Assembly: GCF_003334335.1 (NCBI RefSeq)
Contig: NZ_QOWQ01000219.1
Reading direction: 5' to 3' (one strand)
Source: Escherichia coli
Lineage (GTDB): Bacteria; Pseudomonadota; Gammaproteobacteria; Enterobacterales; Enterobacteriaceae
DNA: 328 nt
The position numbers were made by a program, and so were the translations under genes. Below, one piece after another: positions 1 through 328 of this stretch. Every line of letters begins with the position of its first letter. Positions within the stretch are counted from its first letter, which is position 1. The notes below the pieces were generated by a model, which was not told the origin of the DNA, did no database searches, and worked only from the letters and a program-made list of their open reading frames with translations.

Positions 1-308
1 TGCAGTCCGCCCTTTCCGGCACCGGCCAGTCGCGGCACAATGTGGATGACCGTTCCCTCACCCAGCTGTTCGTGAAGACGGGCGTACACCGCCTCCGGTG
101 CCGTGTCCTCACCGGCAATACGTATCTGGTACCAGCCTTCGTTCATCTGACGGCGGAATCCGGGCACCTGTAACGACAGCGCCCGGATGGCTTCCGCTGC
201 CGTGTTCACATACAGGCTGAGGCGGCGGCCAAATCGTTGTAAATCCCCGTAAAGGCAGATGCGTGCCAGTGGCGGTGACGCCAGACAGAATGCGTTCGTC
301 GTTGCCAT
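1..308 (-). CDS. I: Phage tail tip assembly protein I (lambda gpI-like), N-terminal 102 codons; 3' end lies beyond plus position 1
   Basis: Minus-strand ORF starting at ATG (complement of plus 306-308) and open to the window edge. The translation matches my recollection of lambda gpI in blocks such as ARICLYGDLQRFGRR, AEAIRAL, GWYQ(I/V)RIAG and VIHIVPR(L/V)AGA-K-GG. Codon usage and GC third-position bias are consistent with enterobacterial coding DNA. Homology is from memory, not a search. Confidence 0.9.
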   Translation of the reverse strand, partial: MATTNAFCLASPPLARICLYGDLQRFGRRLSLYVNTAAEAIRALSLQVPGFRRQMNEGWYQIRIAGEDTAPEAVYARLHEQLGEGTVIHIVPRLAGAGKGGL

Positions 309-328
309 TTTTCGGAATACCTCTCCCG
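206..328 (-). CDS. K: Phage tail tip assembly protein K (lambda gpK-like, JAB/MPN plus NlpC/P60 family), C-terminal 40 codons plus stop; 5' end lies beyond plus position 328
   Basis: Minus-strand frame open from the window edge to TGA (complement of plus 206-208), translating to RERYSEKWQRRTHSVWRHRHWHASAFTGIYNDLAAASACM*. It overlaps the I start by 103 nt in a different frame, the same overlap length I recall for lambda K/I (K 14276..14875, I 14773..15444). The peptide resembles the lambda gpK C-terminus as I remember it (…RERY..KWQRRTHS.WRHR.W.ASAFTGIYNDL.AAS…). Confidence 0.8.
   Translation of the reverse strand, partial: RERYSEKWQRRTHSVWRHRHWHASAFTGIYNDLAAASACM
320..326 (-). promoter_or_regulatory. 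Candidate Shine-Dalgarno element for gene I (GGAGAGG on the minus strand), lying inside the K coding sequence
   Basis: Minus-strand GGAGAGG sits 11 nt upstream of the I start codon. The spacer is longer than the usual 5-9 nt, so this is a weak or atypical ribosome binding site. No other purine-rich motif lies closer to the ATG. Confidence 0.35.

Follow-up and report, generated by a model that had tools for sequence, protein, structure and literature searches.

Gene I and its overlap with gene K

The window, the whole stretch of 328 nucleotides analysed here, contains the beginning of gene I from the tail-tip module of a lambda-type (pro)phage, together with the 3′ end of gene K, with which gene I overlaps. 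Positions 308 to 3 on the minus strand translate into 102 codons, MATTNAFCLASPPLARICLYGDLQRFGRRLSLYVNTAAEAIRALSLQVPGFRRQMNEGWYQIRIAGEDTAPEAVYARLHEQLGEGTVIHIVPRLAGAGKGGL, which end in PRLAGAGKGGL. This translation, its identity to the protein of Escherichia phage PhiR5_1, and a match to PDB entry 8iyk assign the frame to codons 1-102 of the 226 codons of gene I (3..308, minus strand), coding for tail tip assembly protein I (gpI, also called TAPI). The open reading frame continues past the edge of the window, where bases 2-1 open codon 103 (Q in PhiR5_1). At the nucleotide level the window is 99.4% identical to PhiR5_1, whose full I reading frame encodes 226 amino acids with residues 1-102 identical to ours, and it is 95-99% identical to more than 100 Stx-converting and other lambdoid phages. 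When the full protein of a near-identical phage is compared, the lambda gpI chains of 8iyk match at 7e-96.

The Pfam family Lambda_tail_I (PF06805) covers I residues 15-97 (model positions 3-83 of 83, E 1.6e-16, 60.9 bits), and a phmmer search of 1.84 billion cluster representatives returned 373 matches at E<=1e-3, which together rule out a chance reading frame. The corresponding PhiR5_1 frames are annotated as tail tip assembly proteins K (247 amino acids) and I. Gene order is H-M-L-K-I-J in PhiR5_1 and in one E. coli prophage, as well as in the annotated divergent phage loci that we gathered by tblastn against a phage collection together with annotated regions, two of which carry extra genes between K and I. 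Reading frames on the plus strand reach only 21-43 amino acids and were rejected as genes because they are short antisense frames of the I/K coding region. No Rfam family matches the window, and scanning it revealed no promoter-like or terminator-like sites. This is an ordinary copy of a gene that ranks among the most frequent in E. coli prophages: of 5426 complete genomes of the species, 4147 contain matches, with two copies as the median and 14 as the maximum.

The ATG at 306..308 (minus strand) is the sole canonical start codon upstream of the conserved first strand of the encoded domain. An in-frame TAA lies seven codons upstream of it in the near-identical locus L001, where the I frame occupies 4021..4701 with an ATG start, and the ATG at 308 is therefore the first start of the I frame. 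Eleven nucleotides upstream, inside the K coding sequence, is a putative Shine-Dalgarno-like element, GGGAGAGG (320..327, minus strand), that may serve in ribosome binding. Annotations disagree about this start. RefSeq/PGAP and several GenBank records begin gene I at a GTG (207..209, minus strand, within ATGTGA), which is codon V34 in our numbering and gives a truncated product of 193 amino acids, whereas the long start is the one chosen for the lambda sequence in UniProt and PDB (223 amino acids) and in a single phage record. Residues G21, L23 and G27, all upstream of the GTG, are invariant or at least 90% conserved in distant homologues. The GTG start cannot be right for a folded beta-grasp domain, because beta1 through beta2 and the invariant G21 would be lost, and the annotation conceals the fold by removing the first two strands of the domain.

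Gene K encodes gpK, a JAB plus NlpC/P60 peptidase, and its last 40 codons, RERYSEKWQRRTHSVWRHRHWHASAFTGIYNDLAAASACM, followed by a TGA stop at 208-206, lie in the window (206..328, minus strand), as read from the translation and from the full K of L001. A sequence-only reading of the window had placed gpI next to gpK, and the two are closer than that: the coordinates of the translations define an out-of-frame overlap of 103 nucleotides (206..308, minus strand), coding in both frames, that spans I residues 1-34 and thus includes beta1 and beta2 of the ubiquitin-like domain. Overlap length varies from 103 nucleotides in the lambda group to 58 in mEp013 and 4-19 in other annotated phages with overlapping genes; in a Mannheimia phage, K and I do not overlap. 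Conserved protein is encoded in both frames. In the I frame it comprises residues 14-33, including the invariant G21, and in the K frame the tail ...THSVWRH...F.GI.ND is common to the window and the non-overlapping Mannheimia K. Compared with a lambda-type phage, the overlap has 83.5% nucleotide identity and the remainder of the I fragment 59%, and the usual excess of third-position changes, seen at 46 of 68 sites outside the overlap, is gone inside it, with 3 of 34. Changes within the overlap fall mostly at first positions of I codons, which are the wobble positions of K.

A ubiquitin-like domain and the glycine that closes it

To model the N-terminal domain of gpI with AlphaFold2, we used an alignment of 55 diverse N-terminal domains (alignment A1), and obtained a structure with a pLDDT of 86 and a pTM of 0.75. 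The model contains beta1 (residues 14-19), a helix (21-26), beta2 (29-33), an alpha helix (37-47), a further helix (51-57), a strand (59-64), a helix (71-78) and beta5 (87-93), after which the chain becomes a floppy tail. A Foldseek structural search with this model gave results consistent with a beta-grasp of the ThiS/MoaD clade. As predicted, gpI residues 14-95 (24..269, minus strand) are a ubiquitin-like beta-grasp domain of the ThiS/MoaD/SAMP type, in agreement with the fold proposed by the sequence-only reading, and we are all but certain of the identity of gpI and of its fold. Residues 1-13, MATTNAFCLASPP (270..308, minus strand), form an N-terminal extension predicted from the alignment and from pLDDT to be disordered (mean pLDDT 56 over the first 10 residues). 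Because most distant homologues start at residue 14-17, this extension is specific to the lambda group.

The ubiquitin-like, ThiS/MoaD-clade fold of gpI was predicted by Iyer, Burroughs and Aravind in 2006 (PMC1779556). The fold has thus been present in the literature and in Pfam since then, and the sequence-only reading was right to call this a known prediction and not a new kind of system. A profile search of PDB sequences with A1 retrieved only gpI-type chains and no ThiS or MoaD, so the kinship to these proteins rests on predicted structure and on the iterative searches of Iyer and colleagues. We found no solved structure that contains the ubiquitin-like domain of gpI; PDB chains of lambda gpI and of two homologues match by sequence, but none of them came up as a structural match. 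In L001, which matches the window protein exactly over residues 1-102, and in lambda gpI (residues 1-223), a glycine-rich linker leads from the domain to hydrophobic helices and then to the plug domain at the C-terminus. The two hydrophobic helices and the plug are encoded outside the window, which stops at the linker.

Lambda gpI is the product of the same gene in the same place between K and J, is 62-63% identical to the window protein over residues 1-102, and shares this order of ubiquitin-like domain, glycine-rich linker, hydrophobic helices and plug. The window carries the Stx/PhiR5_1-type lambdoid allele, whose linker reads GAGKGGL where lambda has GAKSGGV. The 13-residue N-terminal extension also differs from that of lambda, with no functional difference in evidence.

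The end of the window translation had drawn attention in the sequence-only reading for a Gly-Gly followed by a leucine. These residues are indeed there: G100 is encoded at 11-9, G101 at 8-6 and L102, where the hydrophobic helices begin, at 5-3, so that the Gly-Gly codons occupy 11-6 of the minus strand. The pair was also proposed to be a conserved processing site, and here the comparative data point elsewhere. We counted residues downstream of P92 in 71 intact, non-redundant relatives that had not been chosen by the motif used for A1, placing P92 by HMM and reading the following residues without gaps. Glycine occupies +4 (G96) in 69 of the 71 sequences and alanine +5 (A97) in 61, whereas glycine is present at +8 (G100) in 37, at +9 (G101) in 49, and at both of these positions in 27 (38%). 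A Gly-Gly occurs somewhere in the linker in 47 relatives, five have no glycine at all from +7 to +11, and a lysine or arginine at +6 or +7 is found in 58. Poor conservation in an alignment, which the sequence-only reading had named as grounds for refutation, thus counts in part against the Gly-Gly but not against a glycine-marked junction, and the proposal that G100-G101 is a conserved processing site is unsupported in the form given.

In the MAFFT alignment of A1, G21 and P92 do not vary, and L23, G27, A40, L44, G58, H89 and G96 reach 90% conservation or more, although conservation of P92 and H89 partly reflects selection of A1 members by a motif that requires proline at 92 and restricts position 89; G100 and G101 are absent from this list of residues conserved at 90% or more. 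G96 never varies across 14 phage K-I pairs, and G101 is retained in 90% or more of them. We therefore distinguish two features on the minus strand: G96-A97 (18..23), a near-invariant glycine plus a small residue closing the beta-grasp domain, delimited by conservation and hhalign, and G98-K99-G100-G101 (6..17), delimited by conservation and by pLDDT values below 50. Judged by these comparisons, the Gly-Gly of the window belongs to a variable, glycine-rich, basic linker leading into the hydrophobic helices.

G96 is the third residue after beta5, which ends at R93, and this is the position held by G75 in ubiquitin. When A1 was aligned by hhalign with single ubiquitin and MoaD sequences, which served for residue pairing only and not as evidence of homology, G96 paired with ubiquitin G75 (7.7% probability) and with MoaD G80 (1.6%). 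By this pairing and by the end of beta5 at R93, G96-A97 is the positional equivalent of ubiquitin G75-G76 and MoaD G80-G81, although the very low hhalign probabilities speak against the mapping of G96. It is most likely G96, together with the small residue after it, that answers to the C-terminal glycine of the ubiquitin-like domain in the prediction of Iyer and colleagues, and G96-A97 is the likeliest recognition or cleavage point. With alanine in the second position, the beta-grasp of gpI closes on a single conserved glycine rather than a di-glycine.

Two observations weigh against a cut at this junction. Characterised JAMM enzymes cleave after Gly-Gly, and the residue that follows G96 is alanine, not glycine. 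In addition, one relative (P0052, ...PVVTAAQKGG) lacks G96, keeps the downstream Gly-Gly, and still has a neighbour with Prok-JAB and NLPC_P60 domains. On the basis of the same relative, we rejected a link between loss of G96 and loss of the JAB neighbour.

gpK as the candidate protease of gpI

In L001, full-length gpK matches Pfam Prok-JAB over residues 3-105 (E 7e-15) and NLPC_P60 over residues 111-224 (E 1e-12). Among 14 phage K proteins with identities down to approximately 36-45%, the residues of the JAMM motif (E19, H68-S69-H70, S78 and D81) are invariant, with the spacing H68-x-H70-x(7-9)-S78-x2-D81 and a nine-residue spacer in three of the proteins. Invariant as well are D120-C121 and H187 of the NlpC/P60 domain. 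Because all 14 proteins keep these catalytic motifs, both peptidase domains of gpK are under selection as enzymes. Among solved structures there is no K homologue apart from a distant JAB.

We also modelled, with AlphaFold2 and 14 paired alignment rows, a fusion in which K is joined by a 31-residue Gly/Ser linker to I residues 1-112 (pLDDT 78.9, pTM 0.71). Residues 94-97 of I (LAGA) change from coil in the model of I alone to a strand in the fusion, and the segment with pLDDT below 50 begins at G100 instead of G98, while G100 and G101 stay below 50 in both models. The modelled LAGA strand resembles a tail held in a protease cleft, with the Gly-Gly unengaged, and we regard this as only a hint.

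Studies of assembled tails are consistent with a domain that disappears. Lambda gpI has been modelled by cryo-EM from residue 135 (PMC10721106) and from residue 134 (PMC12617516), and from residue 101 in the closed state, as cited in a passage of PMC11101478; all three lambda studies call the N-terminal domain unresolved (PMC10721106, PMC12617516, PMC11101478). Published mass spectrometry of lambda virions recovered one gpI peptide, with 9.87% coverage. According to our computed tryptic peptides, this value fits only the C-terminal peptide 202-223, and the N-terminal domain would yield five good tryptic peptides. gpK was undetected in lambda virions (PMC10721106).

A further comparison is with the F-pyocin of P. 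aeruginosa, a tailocin rather than a phage, whose protein PA0640 is homologous to gpI (PDB chain 25vf_9, 8e-14, a chain that we assign to the F-pyocin by inference) and has a linker reading ...IVPLVIGSKQSG. Only residues 127-200 of PA0640 are visible, and its N-terminal region is absent by mass spectrometry from mature particles and present in mutants stalled before tube attachment (10.64898/2026.02.24.707460). The gpK homologue PA0639 is itself absent from particles and needed for the tip, as its deletion leaves tip-less tubes, and the authors propose a proteolytic checkpoint without naming a cleavage mechanism (10.64898/2026.02.24.707460). We found no direct test in the literature of gpK acting on gpI. 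One paper states that processing 'was shown', but its sole citation for this is the 2006 prediction (PMC4936722).

On balance, we favour, by a modest degree, a model wherein gpI is made with the ubiquitin-like domain as a removable pro-domain at its N-terminus and is cut at the glycine junction, with gpK as the most probable protease. The pro-domain would keep the hydrophobic plug segment soluble or guide the plug into a J-L-I tip precursor, and would block premature docking until its release, no later than the moment at which the tip attaches to the tape measure and tube. The non-structural product of the adjacent gene would carry out the cut, with the JAB (JAMM) metalloprotease domain of gpK recognising the ubiquitin-like fold and its extended tail much as a deubiquitinase does; alternatively, the cysteine peptidase domain, NlpC/P60, would be the catalyst. 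The C-terminal plug is the part of gpI present in the finished tail tip.

For lambda-type gpI, we infer three things: cleavage of the domain as opposed to disorder, gpK as the enzyme responsible, and a cut at G96/A97 and not at G100-G101. These parts merit different degrees of confidence. Removal of the domain from the mature tip is quite probable, the role of gpK as the protease of gpI has about even prospects, and the choice of G96/A97 over the Gly-Gly is tentative and somewhat doubtful.

Competing explanations and the wider family of ubiquitin-like systems

The domain might be removed by a host protease or through instability of the linker, leaving gpK with another job such as tip folding or maturation, peptidoglycan hydrolysis, or processing of a different protein, for example the tape measure gpH. 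NlpC/P60 domains are typically cell-wall peptidases, which favours this explanation. PA0640 produced alone in E. coli has its N-terminal region trimmed by host proteases without any K homologue, which also speaks against our preferred model (10.64898/2026.02.24.707460), and gpH, named above as a possible substrate, is cut by a protease in its glycine-rich C-terminal region, yielding gpH* (PMC12617516). We nevertheless consider this explanation rather unlikely. Divergent phages pair a ubiquitin-like domain bearing a near-invariant glycine with a JAB gene that keeps its catalytic motif, usually in overlapping arrangement, and this pairing matches known JAMM-ubiquitin-like pairs. Furthermore, gpK is absent from virions (PMC10721106) and so has no means of attacking the cell wall when the phage infects.

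Missing cryo-EM density is also compatible with a flexible, uncleaved domain, and the lambda-type domain could accordingly be a permanent appendage of the plug that is too mobile to be seen. The cryo-EM papers say only 'unresolved' or 'unseen' (PMC10721106, PMC12617516, PMC11101478), the density reported in the passage of PMC11101478 starts at residue 101, directly after the domain, and the PDB entries carry the full 223-residue sequence. This possibility is improbable in light of the homologous F-pyocin protein, from which the N-terminal region is missing in mature particles according to mass spectrometry (10.64898/2026.02.24.707460), and of the sole gpI peptide from virions, which fits the C-terminus even though the N-terminal domain offers five suitable peptides.

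Two more elaborate schemes invoke a second life for the released domain. gpK and the ubiquitin-like domain might constitute a minimal phage ubiquitin-like system, in which a JAB cut at G96-A97 would be an obligatory assembly checkpoint and the freed domain, ending in a ThiS/MoaD-like glycine, would be reused, either through transfer by NlpC/P60 onto a tail-tip protein or as a decoy or competitor for host anti-phage systems of the ubiquitin-like conjugating kind, whose target is the central tail fibre. We give this scheme a slight chance. Alternatively, the domain could become attached to a tail protein by its C-terminal glycine, a conjugation in which NlpC/P60 would act as transpeptidase and JAB as the processing or deconjugating enzyme. 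The predicted fold and glycine terminus do resemble those of the conjugated modifiers SAMP1 and Urm1, two peptidase domains adjoin one ubiquitin-like domain, and functional analogies of this kind were raised by Iyer and colleagues (PMC1779556). Against this stands the gene content: the annotated loci hold H, M, L, K, I, J and occasional lipoprotein or hypothetical genes, with no E1-like adenylating enzyme and no E2-like gene among them. The terminal motif is Gly-Ala rather than Gly-Gly, and the lambda and F-pyocin studies report neither extra ubiquitin-like density nor ubiquitin-like peptides on the tail proteins (PMC10721106, PMC12617516, PMC11101478, 10.64898/2026.02.24.707460). The chance of conjugation is thus very slight, and the suggestion of the sequence-only reading that gpK might conjugate gpI found no support. 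A muralytic function for the N-terminal domain has been offered only as speculation in the discussion of PMC11101478; we rejected a peptidoglycan-hydrolase role, which the predicted beta-grasp fold contradicts, and find it scarcely credible.

ThiS, MoaD, SAMP, CysO and Urm1 end in a free Gly-Gly, whereas the glycine of gpI is followed by alanine and the whole downstream protein, and gpI has no E1-like partner and no sign of thiocarboxylation or conjugation. The Bil/Bub and CBASS Cap2/Cap3 operons resemble K-I in combining a prokaryotic ubiquitin-like protein with a JAB peptidase, but they include E1 and E2 enzymes, which K-I lacks, and attach their modifiers to targets. Unlike those modifiers, the ubiquitin-like domain of gpI forms the N-terminal part of a precursor to a structural protein. 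K-I also resembles the JAMM-ubiquitin-like pairs HvJAMM1-SAMP1, Mec+-CysO and QbsD-QbsE, as the adjacent gpK carries an intact E...HxH...S..D JAMM motif. At the other end of the protein, the plug domain of phage T5 pb3 sits in the tail-tip lumen where gpI has its C-terminal tripod, and a similar role in membrane insertion has been proposed for it (PMC10721106). It corresponds to the part of gpI encoded outside the window, but it is an insertion in the hub protein and not a separate gene, and it has neither a ubiquitin-like pro-domain nor a JAB/NlpC-P60 partner.

The significance of this common prophage gene lies in a prediction now 20 years old, according to which tail-tip assembly includes a checkpoint at which a phage JAB/NlpC-P60 peptidase takes off a ubiquitin-like pro-domain. 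Recent cryo-EM structures and F-pyocin proteomics make cleavage of gpI by gpK directly testable, and G96-A97 deserves at least as much attention from mutagenesis and mass spectrometry as the downstream Gly-Gly.

Overlapping frames and the start of gene I

Genes K and I, both read from the minus strand, share an out-of-frame overlap of 103 nt (window 206-308, minus strand) in which both frames are conserved. Relative to a lambda-type phage, nucleotide identity is 83.5% inside the overlap and 59% downstream, and changes at I third positions fall from 46 of 68 downstream to 3 of 34 within it. The majority of the changes that do occur in the overlap lie at I first positions, which are the wobble positions of K. 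The length of the overlap differs elsewhere among the phages compared, being 58 nt, 4-19 nt, or none at all. K and I are separated rather than adjacent in some phages. Two genes intervene in Pseudomonas phage PseuP_222, one for a putative lipoprotein and one hypothetical (L009 238-1411), and in a Mannheimia phage the interval contains a predicted terminator along with a small ORF (L007 1248-1483).

RefSeq/PGAP (WP_001089988.1) and several GenBank phage records annotate gene I from an internal GTG, which is codon V34 and lies at the ATGTGA junction with K (window 207-209, minus strand). This start appears at position 4120 of L001, a PhiR5_1-type locus near-identical to the window, and at L002 1600, L003 1600, and L019 1020 among the further loci compared. 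The product begun at this GTG has 193 amino acids, and both β1-β2 and the invariant G21 are missing from it. Past an in-frame TAA, the first start codon encountered is the ATG at window 308, and it agrees with the 223-amino-acid lambda protein. Matches to the window are present in 4147 of 5426 complete E. coli genomes (median of 2 places per genome, with as many as 14), almost all of them chromosomal. The best matches in the collections searched are 99.1-99.4% identical.

A short N-terminal extension

Residues 1-13 of gpI (MATTNAFCLASPP; window 270-308, minus strand) form an N-terminal extension that is modeled with low confidence and is restricted to the lambda group. The corresponding residues in lambda are MAATHTLPLASPG, and residue 14 is Met in lambda but Leu (CTG) in the window. 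Most distant gpI homologues begin at the position of residue 14.

A glycine junction, a possible gpK target, and unusually long relatives

In the distant gpI homologue of Escherichia phage mEp013 (L013), a Gly-Gly occupies precisely the ubiquitin-equivalent position (..IIAPVVEGG-IAGIGVV..), and a hydrophobic segment follows directly, without a further linker. This placement fits a junction at +4/+5 from the conserved Pro. The tape measure protein gpH is converted to gpH* by a cut in its glycine-rich C-terminal region (PMC12617516). An obvious candidate for the protease is gpK, which is encoded in the same module, has two peptidase domains, and is non-structural.

Among the 373 relatives of the I fragment, one predicted protein of 2783 amino acids (P0021) has 17 separate stretches that match I residues 10-43 (E 8.5e-21), a pattern that suggests a tandem repeat read as protein, or an artefact of assembly, and not a tail protein. 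The ubiquitin-like domain is also N-terminal in four far longer proteins, namely P0115 (1812 aa), P0148 (1198 aa), P0149 (714 aa), and P0123 (567 aa), which are probably I-J fusions, an arrangement mentioned by Iyer et al. (PMC1779556). If these fusions are real, then the protein from which the pro-domain must be cleaved would be a giant hub/fibre protein.
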